A stretch of DNA of 64,000 nucleotides. Source: an uncultured Candidatus Saccharibacteria bacterium (lineage in GTDB: Bacteria; Patescibacteriota; CPR2; UBA1875; CAIMLA01). Under the pieces are notes generated by a model. It had not been told where the DNA came from. It saw only the letters and a list, made by a program, of their open reading frames with translations, and ran no database searches. The translations under genes and the position numbers were made by a program. Of this stretch, positions 6,413 through 63,835 are shown piece after piece (the stretch's first letter is position 1; each line of letters begins with the position of its first letter). The stretch lies in contig CAZCRI010000001.1 of assembly GCA_964501135.1 (NCBI GenBank), positions 128,393-192,392 on the forward strand, written 5' to 3'.

Positions 6413-6445
6413 AAAAAGAGACCCCCACTGGGTCCCTTTTTGGTA

Positions 6446-6679
6446 TTAGGCTTCTATGTCGGGAGTCTTTGCTGCCGCTTCCTCTTCGGCAAGCTTGATT
6501 TCTGCATATGCTCCAGCTTCATCAAAAATGGACTGGGCCTTTACTAAATCATTCTGAGAGGCTTCTGCGTTTTCCGGGGAAAGGTTATCGTAGTACTCGG
6601 TTACTAATTCTTGCCTTCTAATTTCCCTAGGTGTTTGCTGCTCGCCCCCGCCTTCTCCACCGCCTTCAAAGTTTCCCAT
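6446..6679 (-). CDS. small acidic hypothetical protein (77 aa)
   Basis: own AAGGA RBS and TATAAT -10 upstream on minus strand; Gly/Glu-rich N-terminus. Confidence 0.5.
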   Translation of the reverse strand: MGNFEGGGEGGGEQQTPREIRRQELVTEYYDNLSPENAEASQNDLVKAQSIFDEAGAYAEIKLAEEEAAAKTPDIEA

Positions 6680-6779
6680 AGCTTTTCCTTTCGTTACTTA
6701 TATGATTATAGCTATCGTTTGTGGTCAAAATCAAGCTTCTCTATTTCTACTTTTATAAGTTACGCGGTATAATATACAC

Positions 6780-18797: not shown

Positions 18798-19073
18798 CCC
18801 TCACAAGATTTTGTATTTTTTAATAAAATTAGGCACAAACCAATGAAAAGAAGTTGTTGGTTCCGTTTGGAACCTTGTGCTTCCTCCCATAAGCCTATGC
18901 CCATAGAAGTACCTAATTAATCTTATTTTTTGTTTTGGGGCGGTTTTGGCCCTAGACGATAAATGCCCTTAGTTATCACCAAAGACAACTATATTATACA
19001 CCCAGGGGTCAACGTTTCAAGGGTGGTTTATGCACATTCTAACATTCTATAGAACGTTAGAATGTTGTTTTGC

Positions 19074-19103
19074 GAGATAAAAAACCGGCCCTAGGGCCGG
19101 TGG
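19074..19103 (-). terminator. rho-independent terminator of rpmB
   Basis: minus strand CCGGCCC-TAG-GGCCGG followed by TTTTTT. Confidence 0.6.
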
Positions 19104-19114
19104 ATATGTCTATA

Positions 19115-19297
19115 TTATTTAGTGACTTTGCTTGCCGTCTTGATACATTTGGTGCAAGCCTTTACGCGTTTAGTTTCGCCTGCTGGAGTAAACCATTGCA
19201 AATTAGGTAGCCAGCGACGCTTAGTCTTGGCATGTGAGTGACTGACATTGTTACCAGCCATTGGTTTTTTTCCGCAAACTTTACATTCTACACTCAT
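19115..19297 (-). CDS. rpmB: 50S ribosomal protein L28
   Basis: [34 protein letters not shown] matches L28 consensus. Confidence 0.85.
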
Positions 19298-19373
19298 GTA
19301 GGACTCCTAGTCTTTCAATACAACGTGGTAAATGTTATCATAATCTCACTTTAAGGTCAAGGATAAATAGGCT

Positions 19374-35060: not shown

Positions 35061-35129
35061 ATATAAGAGTCAGCTTGTTAATTTGACTTTCGTATTATAC
35101 ACTAAAATCAAGTAAATTAGGAGAGAAAG

Positions 35130-35450
35130 ATGGCAGAAGCAGTAAGACCAGAAGACTTCGACGAACCTGAGTTGACTTGGGGAAATGACGAATTAGGGGT
35201 TGAGGCAACGGGACAAAATGACCCGGCTGTGGCAGAACTGAAAGAGCAGAGAAGACTGGCAAGGGATAGAAAGTTTTTGGTAGATAAAGAAGTAGGCCTA
35301 ATTGTTGAGAGCACAAAAGCTGATATCAAACCACCGAAGCATCTTGATGATCCAATCCATGCTCGGGAACTACCGCTACCTGACCCTAGAAATAATAGAT
35401 CTGATAAGGATCATCCGTGGTATGAAGGGACTTCAGAACTTCCCAATTAA
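35130..35450 (+). CDS. acidic hypothetical protein (106 aa)
   Basis: GGAGAGAAAG RBS before ATG; no recognisable domain. Confidence 0.45.
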   Translation: MAEAVRPEDFDEPELTWGNDELGVEATGQNDPAVAELKEQRRLARDRKFLVDKEVGLIVESTKADIKPPKHLDDPIHARELPLPDPRNNRSDKDHPWYEGTSELPN

Positions 35451-41672: not shown

Positions 41673-41749
41673 TGGTGGGTGATACAGGGCTCGAACCTGT
41701 GACCTCTGCAATGTCAATGCAACGCTCTAGCCAGCTGAGCTAATCACCC
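41673..41749 (-). tRNA. tRNA-Val (anticodon GAC), CCA encoded
   Basis: minus strand GGGTGAT...anticodon loop TTGACAT...T-loop TTCGAGC...ATCACCCACCA. Confidence 0.8.
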
Positions 41750-45701: not shown

Positions 45702-45912
45702 TTCTATAGGCCTCCTTTATTTACTTAAGATAATATGAATATAAACTGAGAAAAACCTGAGAACGGTAAACATCAGACCTTGAAAACGCCATGGTAAAAC
45801 TTTGCCTGCCCGACCCCGGAGTGATTTTAGTGTGTTTGAATGCTAGGGATACTCCTGATTGAGCGCTTTAAGGTTGTAGGGTACAATTATTAGATTAATT
45901 TAGGAGAAATAA

Positions 45913-46101
45913 ATGCCGATCTATGTTTATAAAGCGAAATGCCCGCAAGACCATGTTTGTCCTGCCATGAGAGTTTGCCCAGTGTCTGCACTTTCTCAAG
46001 AGGGATTCGACGCTCCAGTAGTAGATAAAGATAAGTGTATAGAATGTGGGGCTTGTTCAAGGTTGTGTCCTATGGGCGCTTTGCAGTTTATGAAGGAGTA
46101 G
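45913..46101 (+). CDS. small 4Fe-4S ferredoxin-like protein
   Basis: CIECGACSRLCP cluster motif plus second Cys group; GGAG RBS. Confidence 0.6.
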   Translation: MPIYVYKAKCPQDHVCPAMRVCPVSALSQEGFDAPVVDKDKCIECGACSRLCPMGALQFMKE

Positions 46102-46141
46102 TGGTTTGACTCGACGGGTTCGAGTCTATAATATGTAGTAG

Positions 46142-49225: not shown

Positions 49226-49621
49226 TGGTGGAGCTGGTGGGTACTGCCCCCACGTCCGAAAGCGAAGCCGAAATAATTTGTAACAATCATACTCGGGACT
49301 GGTAGTTTTGGTGCTGATGGTCAAGTCTCGAGAAAATCCATCGGCCTTATCCTCTAGAGTTTCAGGTTAGCTTAGAGAAGTCACTAGCCCTACCCCTGAC
49401 ATATATGGCACTCAGTAGCGAACGATTCAGGTCTCACTCACAAGAGCGGTTACTGCGTATTAGGCAGCAACTGGCGCAAAGCTGTTTACGCTGAAAGCGC
49501 TAGCAACCTTACTAACAAAGTTTTTTGCAACTATGTCTGATCTGCTGAATAACGCGGACAGACCACCGCGGATTGTATCATTTCGATTTCAAGATACCTT
49601 CGTCGAAGCTAATTCAGCCCC
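49226..49621 (-). ncRNA. ssrA: tmRNA (SsrA), standard one-piece
   Basis: minus strand 5' GGGGCUGAAUUAGCUUCGACGAAGG..., 3' ...GUGGGGGCAGUACCCACCAGCUCCACCA; acceptor pairing with G3-U70; resume GCA after AUAGUU; predicted tag (A)KNFVSKVASAFSVNSFAPVAA ending UAA; smpB 3.6 kb away. Confidence 0.8.
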
Positions 49622-57746: not shown

Positions 57747-57896
57747 TCCTAAGGCCTTAATACGTAAGAAACTATAACACTTTTGTGGGGTTATGACAAA
57801 TATTTGCGCCAGCAATTTATACTTGATAAAAACAACTTTCAGCGTATGATATTCTCAATGGTCCATTTGAATGCATTGCCCTAGAGAGGGGGAGTC

Positions 57897-58025
57897 ATGT
57901 TCGGGAACCAGTTTGACATCGCTGGTGTTCTCATTCTTGGGGCGCTGTTCCTTGGAGGCGTTGTTGTGGTCATGTCCATAGTCGGTGCTGCTGCTGCCAA
58001 AGGGCAGCGCAACATCCAGGAGTAG
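57897..58025 (+). CDS. small membrane protein (42 aa) in GC-rich insert
   Basis: GAGGGGGAG RBS; single TM helix; GC-rich codons. Confidence 0.45.
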   Translation: MFGNQFDIAGVLILGALFLGGVVVVMSIVGAAAAKGQRNIQE

Positions 58026-58028
58026 GGG

Positions 58029-58355
58029 GTGCGTGAGATGTTCATGACCGAACCCGCGGTACAGGTCGTCGCTGCGATCATGGTGGCAGGTGTTGCAGTG
58101 CTTTCTGCGGCGCTGGTTCTCGGCCAGGTGGAGGAAGGAATCGAACAGGCCGAGGCGTTCGATTTTCCGGAGGAGAATGGTTCTGTTGTCAGACAGGTGA
58201 ACTCCGCGCCGAACTCAGACGGCGAGATCACCGACCCTGCCGAATGGGAGCAGCTCCGGCGTACGGCCGCCATCAACGAGGCAATGGCCTCTGATGCGAT
58301 GGCAGCCGCCTTTGAGGGGGATATGCCTGGCATGCCGCCGGTTTCGCTCCACTAG
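58029..58355 (+). CDS. hypothetical protein with N-terminal TM helix in GC-rich insert (start GTG 58029 or ATG 58038)
   Basis: GGAG..GGGGG RBS; high GC3; followed by terminator. Confidence 0.5.
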   Translation: MREMFMTEPAVQVVAAIMVAGVAVLSAALVLGQVEEGIEQAEAFDFPEENGSVVRQVNSAPNSDGEITDPAEWEQLRRTAAINEAMASDAMAAAFEGDMPGMPPVSLH

Positions 58356-58384
58356 GAGTAGTCTACCTCAGGACGGGAGGTGCA

Positions 58385-58424
58385 GTCCGGGTTGTTGCTT
58401 TTTGCGGCACCCGGACTTTTGATT
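58385..58424 (+). terminator. rho-independent terminator ending the GC-rich two-gene insert
   Basis: GTCCGGG...CCCGGAC stem followed by TTTTGATTTG. Confidence 0.65.
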
Positions 58425-58803: not shown

Positions 58804-59139
58804 ATGGCCTACGATTTAGAACAAAAGGCCTTAATGTTTAGTAAAAATGTATTCATATTTTGCAAAGCATTGCCCCAGGATGCTGTGACTAGACCCATAA
58901 TAAGTCAGGTAGTCCGCTCTTCTGCCTCCATCGGGGCAAATTACATAGAAGCAAACGAGTCTTTGGGCAAGAAGGATCTCGTCTATAAACTAAAAATTTC
59001 TCGCAAAGAAGCAAAAGAAACTATTTATTGGCTAGAAATAATGTCTACGGTAGTTTCTTCAGAGGAGATTAAGAAATTATCCGAGGAGGCCCTACAGCTC
59101 AAAAAGATTCTGTCCTCGATAATCATTAAGTCATCTTAG
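58804..59139 (+). CDS. four-helix-bundle protein (23S rRNA intervening-sequence protein family)
   Basis: AAAGGAGGGGAG RBS; family pattern SSASIGANYIEANESLGKKDLVYKLKISRKEAKETIYWLEI. Confidence 0.65.
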   Translation: MAYDLEQKALMFSKNVFIFCKALPQDAVTRPIISQVVRSSASIGANYIEANESLGKKDLVYKLKISRKEAKETIYWLEIMSTVVSSEEIKKLSEEALQLKKILSSIIIKSS

Positions 59140-59172
59140 GCCTGCGTTCTGAACTACTTGGAATTTTAAATT

Positions 59173-60384
59173 ATGAGAATAATTTTACATATCGACATGA
59201 ATTCATATTTTGCGACTGTGGAGCAGCAGGCCAATCCGAAACTTCGTGGCAAGCCAATCGCGGTGATGGGTAGTACGGCGAAGCGAAGCATTATTGTGGC
59301 AGCAAGTATCGAAGCGAAACGCTACGGGGTAAAGACGGCGACAAGAATTGATGAGGCGTTGCGGCTTTGTCCGGAGTTAATTCTTGTAAATGGCGAGCCA
59401 CGGAAGTATAGCTGGGTGACGAAGAAGTTCATTGATATATTCGAGGATTATACCGATAAGGTGGAGATATTCTCTATCGACGAAGCCTTCTTGGATGTAA
59501 CCAAGACGGCAAATATTTATGGCGGAGCGGAGCAAATCGCTCTCTCCATCAAACAGCGAATCCGCAATGAGATCGGCAGCTATATTTCTTGCTCAGTTGG
59601 GATTGCAAAGAATAAGTTTTTGGCAAAGACTGGTAGCGACCTTGTAAAGCCAGATGGACTCACTATTATTACGGACGAGAATGTTGACGACATTCTGTTG
59701 CCGCTGCCTCTCTCGGAATTTTGTGGTATTGGTAGAAGAATATTGGCGCGTCTGGGCGCACTGGGAATCGAAACTACCCAGCAACTCCGTGATTATCCAA
59801 ACGTGCTACTAAATCGAGAGTTTGGAATTGCCAGCGGAGAAAAGTTAAAACGAATGGCTTATGGCTTGGATAATTCACCAGTAATCAGCCGACATGATAG
59901 AGCCGATGCCAAGTCTTATGGACATTCTAGGACGTTGAATAAGAATGTCACTGACAGAAATGAGATACGGAAACACATGCTATTACTCTCGGAAAAAGTG
60001 GCTACCAGAATGCGCAAGGATGGCTGCATGGCCAAAGAGGTGGGTCTCTGGATTCGTTTTGGAGACTTTACCGGAGTGGGGCAACGCCATCGTGTTGGTA
60101 AGTGGACTCATGATGGGGTAGAAATCTACGATGCGGCGGTAAAAATATTGGGGACGCTAGATCTGCGGGCGCCGGTACGGGCTATCGGGATTTATGCGGC
60201 TCAGATTCAGAGAGATTCCTGCACTACGGTGAGCCTACTCCCCGAAGACACAATCAACGACAAGATCCTGGCGGCTATGGATGCGGTGAATAATCGTTTC
60301 GGCGAGACGGTAGTAACTCGTGCCAGGCTAGCTGGGGTCAAAATCAAGGAGGTGGTTTCCGGTATGGGGAGGGATAAGTTCTAG
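59173..60384 (+). CDS. dinB: DNA polymerase IV (Y-family translesion polymerase)
   Basis: ILHIDMNSYFATVE, SIDEAFLDVT catalytic motifs. Confidence 0.85.
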   Translation: MRIILHIDMNSYFATVEQQANPKLRGKPIAVMGSTAKRSIIVAASIEAKRYGVKTATRIDEALRLCPELILVNGEPRKYSWVTKKFIDIFEDYTDKVEIFSIDEAFLDVTKTANIYGGAEQIALSIKQRIRNEIGSYISCSVGIAKNKFLAKTGSDLVKPDGLTIITDENVDDILLPLPLSEFCGIGRRILARLGALGIETTQQLRDYPNVLLNREFGIASGEKLKRMAYGLDNSPVISRHDRADAKSYGHSRTLNKNVTDRNEIRKHMLLLSEKVATRMRKDGCMAKEVGLWIRFGDFTGVGQRHRVGKWTHDGVEIYDAAVKILGTLDLRAPVRAIGIYAAQIQRDSCTTVSLLPEDTINDKILAAMDAVNNRFGETVVTRARLAGVKIKEVVSGMGRDKF

Positions 60385-60396
60385 AAATGTGTTGAC

Positions 60397-60425
60397 GTCT
60401 ATTTTTCCTCGGTATATATTAGCGA
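60397..60425 (+). promoter_or_regulatory. strong sigma70-like promoter reading into ORF-free region
   Basis: TTGACG - 17 nt - TATATT. Confidence 0.5.
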
Positions 60426-61092
60426 TACGCTGAAAAACCTGAATACTCGGAATTAAGGTTACTTAAGCGTGTTCCTCTACCCCTGCAACCGAATTGCCTT
60501 GTGTGCATATACTGTCGCCGGGAGATAGTGAATATAACCGATGCAAGATGCGGGATCAACACCTTTCCGAGTAGGTGGGTCTCTCGCAAACTGGGACTGG
60601 CGGAAAAGTAGGCCGCGATAACAACAGAGGGTTTGCCTCAGTGGTCCACGCCGAAAGAGGTAGGCATAGAATTAGCCGACGCAACCTCCGCCGTTTCAAA
60701 GTCCAAGTCTACTACGTACCAGCTTCGTTTCAGGTACCTCTTGTAGGCGCAAGCCCTAGTCGAAACGCTGCGTTTGCTGCTGCCCTCGGGGCGGTAGGGA
60801 TGTAAGCTCACTGGCTGGGCAAAGTTCGGTGCCAGTAAGGCCCGCATGTAGAGTTGCGTAATGTCGCCACGGAGCAGAGAGCTCACGGCGCAGAGACTCC
60901 TACACGGGAACCGATTGGTACAAATCTAGGCCGGCATGGTGACCGTTACTGTGGTCACTTTGCCCTCGTTCGCGGATTTCGAACCGCGATTACGGGGGCC
61001 ATGCCAGCCCCTTCCATAGCTACAAACGCCTTGACAGAGGCATATATATAGGTTATACTCTTTTCTTGGTGCACTTCGGTGCCCATTTTCAT

Positions 61093-61201
61093 GGGGGGTA
61101 GCTCAGTGGATAGAGCGCCGTTTGTCAGATGGTCCGATCAACGGGTCATATCATCTGACGCTCGACGGAGGTCACAGGTTCGAGCCCTGTCCCCCCCACC
61201 A
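61093..61201 (+). tRNA. tRNA-like gene with canonical acceptor, D and T arms but a 34-nt insertion in the anticodon arm; identity undetermined
   Basis: GGGGGG.TAGCTCAGTGGATAGAGC..CCGTT[41 nt]GACGG-AGGTC-ACAGGTTCGAGCCCTGT-CCCCCCC-A-CCA; insertion forms 8-bp stem GTCAGATG/CATCTGAC. Confidence 0.55.
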
Positions 61202-61524
61202 AAAACTCTACGTCTACATGGCGTATGCACCATATATCGCAAGTGCGATTGCCCGTCCTTGAGGAGGATCCGCGGAGGGAGCTCCAAGGAGCTGTGGTTC
61301 GAAACCGCAACGGGCACCAGAACCTCCTCGAGTGTTACAAGGCAGCTTACGCTGCAACGTTTCGCTCGTAATAGGCCAGCTGAATAAGGCCAAGGGTCAC
61401 AAAGGATTCTCACAATCGAGACCTAGTCCCACTGTTCAGCGCCCATCAGACCCCCGACTGATGGTTCGGGAGTAATCCCAAAGCACGGCTCGGAGTCCTT
61501 CGACGGTACTTGTACCACAACGAA

Positions 61525-61548
61525 GGCCTTCGGGCCTTTTCAATTCAG
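61525..61548 (+). terminator. terminator-like hairpin ending the ORF-free region
   Basis: GGCCTTCGGGCC followed by TTTTCAATT. Confidence 0.5.
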
Positions 61549-61560
61549 TCGTAAGAAGCG

Positions 61561-62265
61561 TTATTTTTGGCAGATGATATTGAGATTACGAGTTTTCCGG
61601 TGGAAGTCGTAAGTTTGGATGTTCTTGAATTTTGCGGCTCGTAGATACTGCTTCAGTTCCCTTACCGTCCAGGCATGAAGATATCTCTCGGTAATCAGTT
61701 CTGATTTTGAATTTTTCCAAGGACGAAAGAAGTCGCCAAAGGGTAAACCATTGTGAGAAAATAGCGATTTTAGGATTCTCTTTAGATACTCTGGCTTGTT
61801 CCAGAAGTACCAGGTCTCGGTAAAAGCCCATCCTCCAGGTTTGCAAACTCGATACATTTCAGCCAAGAATTGATGTCTGGTTTCGGGTGATGGTAGATGG
61901 TGAATGGTGGCAATAGTCAGAACGATATCAAAATAATCGTCCTTGTAGGGCAGGTCGGTACCGCTCCCTACTGTGTAGTGAGCCTGCGGGTATTTCTCTT
62001 TAGCAATCGCGATGAGCTCCTTGCTGAGGTCGATGCCATAGTAGTCAACATCGTAACCGGGAAACATTTCCGAAACTCTTCCGGCGCCACAACCAATATC
62101 GAGAACCTTAAGTTTTGAACCCTTCTCAAAATGGGAGAGAATGTCGTTTATCGTCGCGCCAACTTCGGGCCAGTTGTATTTACGAGTGCTCGCAAACTGG
62201 ACCGCAATCAGGTTATAATCATCACGGGTTTTGTCTATTAACTTTTGAGCAGTTTGTTTATTCAT
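61561..62265 (-). CDS. class I SAM-dependent methyltransferase
   Basis: motif I VLDIGCGAGR, motif post-I/II present. Confidence 0.75.
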   Translation of the reverse strand: MNKQTAQKLIDKTRDDYNLIAVQFASTRKYNWPEVGATINDILSHFEKGSKLKVLDIGCGAGRVSEMFPGYDVDYYGIDLSKELIAIAKEKYPQAHYTVGSGTDLPYKDDYFDIVLTIATIHHLPSPETRHQFLAEMYRVCKPGGWAFTETWYFWNKPEYLKRILKSLFSHNGLPFGDFFRPWKNSKSELITERYLHAWTVRELKQYLRAAKFKNIQTYDFHRKTRNLNIICQK

Positions 62266-63835
62266 GAATGTAAAAAAAGAAATTATTTATAATCTAATCG
62301 GTGAGAAGGCGCGAACACGGGCTGATTTTCGTCGTGTCGTCGCCTCGGTGTATAGAGATGATAACACGAGCGGGTATCACTCGAACATTGATTTACGCGA
62401 AACCTATGAGGAAATGGTGGCGAATGACGAGATTGACGTTGACGAAAATATTGAAAAACTGCTAATGACCAAGAAAATGCGTTCACTTTCGGGAGTTTCT
62501 GTTATCACGGTCCTTACGAAGCCTTATCCATGCCCTGGAAAGTGTATTTATTGTCCCAGTATTGTCGATGTGCCAAAGAGTTACCTGCCCGATGAGCCGG
62601 CTGTGATGCGAGCGATTCTTGCAGGATATGACGCCAAGAAACAGGTAGAAACGAGATTGAAGTCTCTAGTTCGTCAGGGTCATCCAGTAGATAAAGTAGA
62701 GCTGATTGTGATTGGTGGTACTTACAGTCATTTACCTCGTGAATATCAAGAAAACTTTATTAAAGATTGTTTTGATGCTCTGAATGGGACACTATCGGAG
62801 AGTTTGGCGGATGCCAAAACCCGAAATGAATCAGCGGATTCTCGCTGTGTTGGTCTAACGCTAGAGACCAGACCCGACCACATCACGCCGGACGAAGTGG
62901 CCTGGTTCCGGTATTTGGGAGCGACCAGGGTGGAGCTTGGGGTACAAAGTGTTTATGACGATGTTTTGAAGTTGAATGGTAGGGGCGAAAAAGTAGCAGC
63001 GACAGTTGCGGCTACGCGACTACTCAAGGATGCAGGATTCAAGATTTGCTATCATCTAATGCCAAATCTTTACGGCTCCGACCTGGTTCGTGACAAAGAA
63101 ATGTTTCATATTGTTTTTACTGACCCTCGTTTTTGCCCGGATTACATCAAAATATATCCTTGTATGGTGATGGAAAACACGCCGCTTTATAAACTCTGGA
63201 GAGAGGGTAGATACGTCAGCTATACCGATGATGAGCTTATAGATTTAATCTGCGAGGTAAAGCAAAATGTGCCGTACTGGATACGAATTATGCGCACTAT
63301 TCGTGATATTCCGGCGCCAAACATTGAATCTGGATCCAAAATGTCCAATATGCGCCAGATTATTTTGCAAAAAGCAGAGCAAGAGGGGTGGTCGTGTAAT
63401 TGTATTCGATGTCGCGAGATAGGGGCGAAAGCCCAGGCCGAAGTCGACGAAATCATTCAATTTACGGAGAAATACGAAGCTAGTAAGGGCCAGGAATATT
63501 TTCTTAGCTATGAAGATAAGGCAAGAAGAAATCTCTATTCATTGCTAAGATTGCGCTTTCCCGGAGAAAACGAAATAGCAGAAGTGCTGCCAGAAATAGC
63601 CGAGTGTGCTCTAATCCGAGAGGTACATACCTATGGCCAACAGATTGAGATTGGCGAGCAGGGTGAGACGCAGCACCGCGGTTACGGCAAAAAGTTGATA
63701 GCCGAAGCCGAGAAACAAGCCCGTGAAAAAGGTTATAAAAAGATTGCAGTGATCTCGGGTGTGGGTGTGCGTGGTTACTATCAGAAATTTGGTTATGAAC
63801 TTCACGGCGAGTATATGGTAAAAACACTCGACTAA
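62264..63835 (+). CDS. Elp3-family radical-SAM/GNAT protein (tRNA U34 carboxymethyluridine synthase homolog)
   Basis: radical SAM cluster motif CPGKCIYCPS, central rSAM core, C-terminal GNAT (RGYGKKLIAEAEKQAREKGYKKIAVISGVGVRGYYQKFGY). Confidence 0.75.
   Translation: MNVKKEIIYNLIGEKARTRADFRRVVASVYRDDNTSGYHSNIDLRETYEEMVANDEIDVDENIEKLLMTKKMRSLSGVSVITVLTKPYPCPGKCIYCPSIVDVPKSYLPDEPAVMRAILAGYDAKKQVETRLKSLVRQGHPVDKVELIVIGGTYSHLPREYQENFIKDCFDALNGTLSESLADAKTRNESADSRCVGLTLETRPDHITPDEVAWFRYLGATRVELGVQSVYDDVLKLNGRGEKVAATVAATRLLKDAGFKICYHLMPNLYGSDLVRDKEMFHIVFTDPRFCPDYIKIYPCMVMENTPLYKLWREGRYVSYTDDELIDLICEVKQNVPYWIRIMRTIRDIPAPNIESGSKMSNMRQIILQKAEQEGWSCNCIRCREIGAKAQAEVDEIIQFTEKYEASKGQEYFLSYEDKARRNLYSLLRLRFPGENEIAEVLPEIAECALIREVHTYGQQIEIGEQGETQHRGYGKKLIAEAEKQAREKGYKKIAVISGVGVRGYYQKFGYELHGEYMVKTLD

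Follow-up and report, generated by a model that had tools for sequence, protein, structure and literature searches.

What does a bacterium of the Patescibacteria (candidate phyla radiation, CPR), whose genomes are among the smallest and most tightly packed in bacteria, keep in more than a kilobase of DNA without a gene for a protein? The question is raised by contig CAZCRI010000001.1 (assembly GCA_964501135.1) of an uncultured Candidatus Saccharibacteria bacterium, of which 64,000 nucleotides (nt), positions 128,393 to 192,392, were analysed as one stretch, here called the window; coordinates are those of the window unless a relative is named. At 60385-61560, between dinB and a methyltransferase gene, the window has its longest gap without an open reading frame (ORF), 1,176 nt in which no ORF exceeds 102 amino acids (aa). 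The locus is non-coding, and it is conserved and structured on the plus strand. It is very probably a functional non-coding RNA (ncRNA) locus. The favoured reading, to which a probability of about 0.45 is given, is that of a new ncRNA locus restricted to a clade of Patescibacteria, consisting of two transcription units, in which tRNA-like modules would serve as processing handles.

A non-coding locus under purifying selection

The next-longest ORF-free gaps in the window are the genes for transfer-messenger RNA (tmRNA) and RNase P RNA. An earlier inspection of the letters alone (the sequence-only reading) had already singled out the locus as ORF-free and raised in GC content, and both observations hold; GC is 0.53-0.58 in the locus vs 0.41-0.48 in the flanks. 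Nor does it encode a protein. Eleven translations (ten frame translations and the 102-aa ORF) contain no Pfam domain, the only two matches being far below the cut-off with E > 0.04. The window and its closest relative, L001 (DinB 96% identical), have no common stop-free frame of at least 50 codons. The mismatches between the two are without three-base periodicity, 50/33/48 in the first of the RNAs described below (RNA-1) and 28/23/23 in the 3' trailer of the second (RNA-2).

The gene order dinB, an ORF-free gap of 0.5-1.9 kb, the methyltransferase gene on the minus strand and an Elp3-like gene on the plus strand recurs in many relatives. Those compared have the dinB-gap synteny and DinB proteins ~60-96% identical to that of the window; they come from NCBI, ENA and JGI assemblies and carry L numbers. 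RNA-1 homologues are found in the window, L001, L003, L081-83 and L084 (five distinct loci), and homologues of the trailer in these and in L002, L085 and L088 (about eight distinct loci).

Between the window and L001, third codon positions are close to saturation (52% identical in dinB and 49% in Elp3). For RNA-1 the identity is 77% (661 nt compared), and for the trailer it is 79% (346 nt). In 50-nt windows the identity reaches up to 98% at 60926-60975 and 92-96% at 61436-61548, and it drops to 12-58% in the middle (~61025-61236, comprising the spacer with the second promoter, the leader and the tRNA recognised by Rfam), where L001 has different sequence. The flanking RNA is thus better conserved than the tRNA-like part. 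Since the identity is well above that of the near-saturated third codon positions, the locus is taken to be under purifying selection. Its sequence diverges fast among syntenic relatives. The nhmmer profiles of RNA-1 and the trailer, searched against 170 fetched loci, retrieved only the training loci or their copies and a weak match to the terminal hairpin of L101, and exact-pattern scans with the best-conserved RNA-1 block gave zero matches in viral contigs and in JGI metagenome contigs.

Two transcription units on the plus strand

Two promoters are predicted in the locus.

60392-60420, plus strand: promoter P1 of RNA-1 (TTGACG-17-TATATT), 10/12 consensus matches, second-best in 59000-63000
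61031-61059, plus strand: promoter P2 of RNA-2 (TTGACA-17-TATACT), 11/12 matches, best in the region

These are the top two of 12 sigma-70-like sites in the 4-kb scan, where shuffles give 4.3. The sequence-only reading had recognised P1, although the true site lies 5 nt to the left of where it was placed. It had also treated the locus as a single unit running from promoter to terminator, a view overturned by P2, the second and better promoter, which splits the locus in two. In the window, L001, L003 and L084, the dinB stop is directly followed by a near-consensus equivalent of P1, and that of L081 is weaker (TTGCAA-16-TAGAAT). P2 (TTGACA-17-TATAAT-like) occupies an equal internal position in the window, L001, L003, L081 and L084. 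In L085 and L088, which are without RNA-1, a P2-like promoter directly precedes tRNA genes. As judged from these predicted promoters, the locus is two plus-strand transcription units, not one.

Both conserved promoters are on the plus strand. The folding-energy z-scores of that strand relative to shuffles are -2.5 for RNA-1 and -4.6 for RNA-2; the z-score of the minimum free energy is lower on the minus strand than on the plus strand. The RNA-1 structure is assigned to the plus strand because its model holds ~55 aligned G-U pair cells (the author's count), which would become A-C mismatches on the opposite strand.

RNA-1, a multi-helix RNA with a loop-loop contact

RNA-1 has three prominent structural elements.

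60427-61020, plus strand: RNA-1, multi-helix, ~600 nt, its extent predicted from the promoter and the terminal structure
60425-60472, plus strand: 5' hairpin domain, loop L1 carrying ACUCGGAA at 60445-60452; 88% identical to L001
60549-60588, plus strand: hairpin A, UGCGGGA-UCAA-CACCU-[UUCCGAGU]-AGGUG-GGUC-UCUCGCA; both stems 100% paired, with compensatory changes
60929-61009, plus strand: Y-shaped three-way junction (outer stem Pa, hairpins Pb and Pc), then a C/U-rich tail; 98% identical to L001

The consensus fold of RNA-1 from the window, L001 and L003 consists of 143 pairs, and 89.5% of the aligned pair positions are standard. In this model 36 pairs change on both sides, compared to 14.5 +/- 3.0 in column shuffles (0/500 reach 36) and to 3-9 in a control with the partners slid by 1-3 columns; these statistics are supportive rather than conclusive because the structure was derived from the same three-sequence alignment.

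More loci could be brought to bear on the loop-loop pairing and the Y junction, for which structural alignments of five loci were made by hand; both extend to L081 and L084, which are far more divergent. An RCUCGG motif lies within an apical hairpin in 5/5 RNA-1 loci. It is complementary to the loop of hairpin A, LA (60565-60572, CCGAGY), the window having ACUCGG with CCGAGU, and the L1:LA pairing amounts to 7-8 bp in 5/5 loci. Position 1 shows a compensatory change in L084 (A-U to G-C), position 7 shows one in L003, L081 and L084 (A-U to G-C), and the stem beneath LA covaries at 5/5 pairs. L1:LA is a predicted long-range kissing-loop or pseudoknot contact, which might be intramolecular or intermolecular.

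The Y junction also folds in 5/5 RNA-1 loci. Standard pairs are found at 104/105 of its aligned stem positions, and compensatory changes at 12/23 pair positions. The sequence-only reading had seen a minus-strand tRNA-like segment here, at 60925-61010; the helices are those of the plus-strand junction, and TTCGAAAT, part of the supposed tRNA, is already TACAAAAT in L001. Because a C/U-rich tail follows the junction and P2 comes 10-20 nt later, the junction probably represents the 3' end or terminator of RNA-1, most likely its 3' end.

A 10-nt sequence at the 5' end of RNA-1, UACGCUGAAA (60426-60435), is invariant in the window, L001 and L003 and is a perfect complement to the window tmRNA at 49487-49496. 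The match is at chance level (E = 0.66 in a tiny search) and is absent from RNA-1 of L081 and L084. A likeness of the locus to the RNase P RNA or tmRNA of the window was rejected as well, only short matches at chance level being present. At the start of the gap, in place of RNA-1, palindromes resembling repetitive extragenic palindromes (GTCATTGCGAGGAACGAAGCAATC and variants) are found in L085 (4189-4300), L088 (4213-4300) and L002 (13700-13730).

RNA-2, tRNA-like modules followed by a structured trailer

RNA-2 would span ~61066-61540 on the plus strand and comprise the following parts.

61068-61083, plus strand: leader hairpin GGUGCAC-UUCG-GUGCC, then CAUUUUCA; flagged as terminator-like (weak), not conserved in L001
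61092-61201, plus strand: tRNA-like module 1, with a U1xC72 mismatch and six G-C acceptor pairs, D-arm, AGGUC variable loop, T-arm and ACCA
61209-61232, plus strand: hairpin H1 (ACGUC..GGCGU) and UGCACC(A), the start of the trailer; signature of H1 and UGYAC(C) in eight loci
61250-61319, plus strand: tRNA-like module 2, a minihelix with a 7-bp acceptor (UGCCCGU/ACGGGCA), one internal hairpin, T-arm UGUGG-UUCGAAA-CCGCA and CCA
61320-61486, plus strand: structured 3' trailer, with a long-range helix GCUGAAUA/UGUUCAGC and hairpin CCAUCAG..CUGAUGG in the consensus fold
61487-61541, plus strand: predicted long-stem intrinsic terminator GGCUCGGAG..CUUCGGGCC (stem 61487-61536), then UUUUC

Of the three tRNA-like segments proposed by the sequence-only reading, the two in RNA-2 stand and that at 60925-61010 does not. 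The near-complete tRNA among them, module 1, is matched by the Rfam tRNA model at 61092-61198 with 43.6 bits vs a gathering score of 29; 43 nt take the place of 9 model positions. The anticodon arm forms a ~20-bp rod, which has a bulge of 3 nt and a tip of 4-5 nt. The 5-bp anticodon stem and the 7-nt loop with U33 and an anticodon, by which a decoding tRNA is recognised, are missing. Nor is module 1 conserved as an essential gene would be in close relatives, since in L001 ~240 nt of unrelated sequence, without tRNA shape, replaces it, and 21 kb of L001 yield no tRNA call. The D-arm, variable loop and T-arm match those of the window tRNA-Val(GAC) (41673-41749) almost base for base, which is the sole significant similarity of the locus to the rest of the window. 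Module 1 is a tRNA-Val-derived tRNA-like element without a standard anticodon loop. In its default mode, ARAGORN does not call any tRNA here. An archaeal bulge-helix-bulge intron in module 1 was considered and rejected, the geometry being absent when the fold is read. A leader-trailer pairing across module 1 (UGGUGCA/UGCACCA) was dropped as well; it is present in the window, L001, L003 and L081 and not in L084, L085 and L088.

The cassette at this position differs among relatives. L081 has a tRNA-shaped element whose acceptor stem is an equal UGGGGG.../...CCCCCC-N-CCA but whose arms differ and whose insert is larger. In L085 (4506-4577), L100 (1900-1967) and L101 (2761-2835), the position of module 1 is taken by Val-like tRNAs whose anticodon loops have 6 nt (UUACAA, UUACCA, CUUCCA). 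Ser-like tRNAs of 99-106 nt are present in L004 (9868-9972), L098 (5539-5639), L088 (4570-4675) and L100 (1973-2071); they have variable arms of ~30 nt or more, and their anticodon loops read GGC, AAA, GAC or GGU. Since seryl-tRNA synthetase ignores the anticodon, these long-arm tRNAs are either non-decoding or potential mistranslators. Canonical tRNAs occur in the same gap in L005 (Asn) and L101 (Gly and Glu).

Module 2 had been noticed as a 3' tRNA fragment. The fragment consists of a T-arm, an acceptor strand and CCA at 61293-61319, and a complementary 5' acceptor strand was found at 61250-61256. Module 2 does not score with the Rfam tRNA model. In L001 it is retained, and both its acceptor stem and its T-stem have undergone compensatory changes. 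Because L081 lacks it and a direct repeat (GCACCA) flanks it, module 2 looks to have been inserted in the lineage of the window and L001.

In the trailer, H1 has changes on both sides in 2/5 pairs. The consensus of trailer and terminator from the window, L001 and L081 (61317-61552) consists of 62 pairs, 11 of which changed on both sides; the long-range helix shows a compensatory change from GCUGAA/UUCAGC to GUCGAA/UUCGAC. The terminal hairpin GGCC-TTCG-GGCC with its T-run, pointed out by the sequence-only reading, is present at 61525-61540 as the tip of the longer terminator stem. Eight loci have equivalents of this terminator, in which (C)UUUCGC or UUUUC comes after a long GC-rich hairpin. 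When the eight trailers were analysed with MAFFT and RNAalifold, only H1 and the terminator aligned, the middle being clade-specific. Taken together, the comparison with relatives bears out the idea of a large structured ncRNA that had come from the sequence-only reading: the locus is syntenic and conserved above synonymous sites, its helices show compensatory changes, it has no common ORF, and no Rfam family other than tRNA was found in it.

A proposed processing mechanism

According to the favoured reading, RNA-1 would fold into a multi-domain structure held together by the L1:LA loop-loop pairing and capped by the Y junction, which would end transcription. RNA-2 would open with module 1, in which the acceptor stem, the elbow and the CCA are kept and a usable anticodon loop is lost, and module 2 and the structured trailer would follow. 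The tRNA-like modules would be built-in handles for processing or end protection, cutting the precursor into stable structured RNAs, and the conserved products of processing would be RNA-1 and the trailer. Acceptor stem, elbow and CCA are the determinants for RNase P, 3'-end trimming and CCA-adding enzymes. The modules are thought to be processing handles because exactly these parts are kept while the anticodon side varies freely; if they do act as handles, the anticodon side would be free to vary or to be swapped. The mascRNA of MALAT1 (PMC8457004), stable RNAs co-transcribed in the tRNA operon of phage T4, and tRNAs inside rRNA operons are parallels for such processing. The retention by a compact genome of 1.1 kb of non-coding DNA that is under purifying selection and has two near-consensus promoters implies a function that is RNA-based and important.

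A number of points weigh against this reading. Transcription from P1 and P2, the terminator and all of the processing are predictions from sequence. P2 is only ~25 nt upstream of module 1, and therefore RNase P would cut off just a short leader. The weak terminator-like hairpin at 61068-61083, immediately downstream of P2, has no explanation in it. ARAGORN in intron mode reads module 1 as tRNA-Asp(GUC) with a 36-nt insert, and decoding after splicing is conceivable. There are only about eight distinct loci with the trailer and five with RNA-1, and most of the structure statistics, including those on RNA-1, come from 3-5 sequences. RNA-1 in L081 and L084 is recognisable only through its ends and motifs.

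Relation to GOLLD and ROOL

The family is absent from Rfam, and its layout is most like those of GOLLD and ROOL. In the window locus, a search at E<=10 with permissive filters found no GOLLD, ROOL, OLE, T-box, group I/II intron or tmRNA. The tRNA match was the only credible one, at this level as well as at the gathering threshold. Weak matches to snoRNAs, nse_sRNA, Streptomyces-metK and RybB were discarded as noise, as they differ between homologous loci. ARAGORN also finds no tmRNA in the locus; the standard tmRNA of the window is elsewhere, at 49226-49621. No paper describing such RNAs in Patescibacteria was found in the literature.

GOLLD RNAs have a variable 5' domain and a conserved 3' domain, with tRNAs sometimes in the linker (PMC12286853, PMC12990946). 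The locus resembles them in being large and multi-helix, in its order of 5' domain, tRNA-holding junction and 3' domain, and in its proximity to tRNA genes (PMC12286853, PMC12990946). GOLLD, however, belongs to phages and prophages and contains normal tRNAs, whereas this locus is on a reduced CPR chromosome outside any phage or prophage context, is without a model match, and has a conserved internal promoter and non-decoding tRNA mimics. ROOL is a large ornate RNA that is found near tRNA islands and is highly expressed (PMC12286853). The locus is likewise a large structured RNA associated with tRNAs, but it has no match to the ROOL model, comes from other taxa and has no link to phages.

The locus could still belong, as a highly divergent member, to GOLLD or ROOL, which form multimeric cages and occur in tRNA islands. 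The equal layout, the total size of ~1.1 kb and the conserved complementary loops, which could mediate intermolecular kissing, would fit such a member. The two models, on the other hand, match none of three homologous loci (the window, L003 and L081) at E<=10 and none of 21 related loci at gathering score, and blastn of the locus against 50,697 phage records gave no match. The internal promoter is conserved, the chromosomal context is without phage similarity, and conservation is highest at the ends of each unit and not in one 3' core. Membership in either family is therefore unlikely. It is possible, if doubtful, that the locus represents an undescribed class of large structured RNA in CPR/Patescibacteria, chromosomal and vertically inherited, that frames non-decoding tRNA mimics and is a cellular counterpart of the phage-borne ornate RNAs. 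By analogy, the conserved complementary loops may drive a higher-order assembly as in the GOLLD/ROOL cages, or may bind a tRNA-binding factor.

As a cellular, non-phage case, the locus would add to the few giant tRNA-associated RNAs of bacteria. It also offers a natural series of tRNA mimics, in which anticodon loops of 6 nt, anticodon arms shaped as rods, variable arms of ~30 nt or more and a bare minihelix occur, and which shows the tRNA features that are under selection where decoding is not. The length of the RNAs allows in vitro transcription, and RNase P cleavage, loop-loop pairing and oligomerisation are therefore directly testable.

Ordinary or unusual tRNA genes

A second alternative is an ordinary tRNA operon, in which module 1 decodes, for example as tRNA-Asp(GUC) after removal of a short insert, and RNA-1 and the trailer are leader, spacer and terminator. 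The canonical tRNAs in the same gap of some relatives and the GUC anticodon found in intron mode agree with this. Moreover, Patescibacteria often hide their tRNA-Asp and tRNA-Asn genes behind introns, self-splicing ones of group I that lie at position 35/36 (PMC13011429). The locus shares with these genes the phylum and the fact that default tRNA finders miss them. The insert in module 1, however, is a helical extension of 34-36 nt, far below the size of a group I intron, whose core is >200 nt, and no group I model matches at E<=10; the fold has no bulge-helix-bulge geometry either. In the closest relative, L001, non-tRNA sequence takes the place of module 1, and conservation is much higher in the flanks than in the tRNA-like part. 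A covarying structure of 600 nt with its own promoter is no spacer. An ordinary operon is thus quite improbable.

Two other kinds of unusual tRNA-shaped RNA invite comparison with the modules. The first comes from soil metatranscriptomes, in the form of irregular and allo-tRNA-like polycistrons (Mukai et al.; reviewed in PMC7609411). Both are clusters of tRNA-shaped genes with abnormal arms or anticodons that are unlikely to serve in normal translation. Allo-tRNAs, however, have a 12-bp acceptor branch of 8/4 or 9/3, whereas module 1 has 6 bp and a mismatch over 5 bp and its Ser-like relatives have 7/5, and the modules are framed by long conserved structured RNAs. The second is the mascRNA of MALAT1, a non-decoding tRNA-like fold within a longer non-coding transcript (PMC8457004). 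There, too, the parts that are kept are the acceptor stem, the T-arm or elbow and the CCA, as read by RNase P and the 3'-end enzymes. The present locus differs in being bacterial and in having two modules in tandem, and its cleavage is only predicted.

Decay, regulation in cis and hidden proteins

The sequence-only reading had offered a decayed tRNA array as its other option. In a broader form, the locus would be a decaying array, or a set of scars left by the integration of mobile elements at tRNA 3' ends, and largely non-functional. The 3' halves of tRNAs are classic integration sites, the cassette is swapped between close relatives, and the minihelix, with its GCACCA direct repeat, is absent in L081. 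Decay does not explain, however, why the acceptor, D and T helices of the tRNA-like modules are flawless, why the flanking RNA is better conserved than they are, or why identity is 77-98% vs ~50% at neutral sites. Helices are kept by compensatory changes, the promoters are conserved in five loci, and neither an integrase nor any other ORF is present. This explanation has a poor chance of being correct.

An element acting in cis, either a long dinB 3' untranslated region or a T-box-like leader that controls read-through into the tRNA unit, has a poorer one still. It would account for the absence of a terminator between the dinB stop (60384) and RNA-1 and for the terminator-like structure in which RNA-1 ends, directly upstream of the tRNA-like gene. 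A UGGU at 60919-60922, in GAUUGGUAC, could also pair with the ACCA. But RNA-1 has its own conserved near-consensus promoter, and control of read-through is unnecessary because P2 serves the downstream unit. The T-box model gives no match, and L081, L084 and L003 do not keep the UGGU segment; T-box-like sensing by a UGGU:ACCA pairing was rejected on this ground. In L002, the 3' domain stays beside the methyltransferase gene although another gene parts it from dinB.

Small protein genes hidden in the locus can be given hardly any credence. Both strands do contain several ORFs of 30-102 aa, but L001 keeps none of them, codon periodicity and Pfam matches are absent, and the substitutions preserve base pairs instead.

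Genomic context and other features of the window

The neighbours of the gap are dinB, argS, the methyltransferase gene and Elp3.

59173-60384, plus strand: dinB, on the left of the gap
61561-62265, minus strand: S-adenosylmethionine (SAM)-methyltransferase gene, on the right of the gap, convergent
62264-63835, plus strand: Elp3-like radical-SAM/GNAT gene, after the methyltransferase gene

The window is part of a Patescibacteria chromosome. Its DinB is 96% identical to that of a contig of a metagenome-assembled genome labelled 'Patescibacteria group bacterium', and the next DinB relatives carry the labels Candidatus Saccharibacteria or Patescibacteria. An exact-protein look-up of the window DinB and methyltransferase found neither on record. 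The window also holds the RNase P RNA, the tmRNA and five ordinary tRNAs, in all five of which CCA is encoded.

Across the clade, the SAM-methyltransferase and Elp3-like genes, likely tRNA-modification genes, adjoin the ncRNA gap. Between the window and L001, the identity of the methyltransferase protein is only about one half (by eye), against 96% for DinB.

Other gaps, at 18798-19373, 45702-46141, 6413-6779 and 35061-35432 (367-576 nt), have no ORF of at least 110 aa and no Rfam match at gathering score. A GC-rich island at 57900-58400 (0.58-0.64, vs ~45% GC in the genome) overlaps two mutually antisense ORFs, 57881-58333 on the minus strand (150 aa) and 58029-58355 on the plus strand (108 aa). 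The 150-aa ORF gives no match in Pfam. The island may be a recent insertion, because only the flank from ~58360 on is kept in L001 and L081. Directly upstream of dinB, a 23S rRNA intervening-sequence protein (four-helix bundle) is encoded at 58804-59139, and its gene is syntenic in several relatives.

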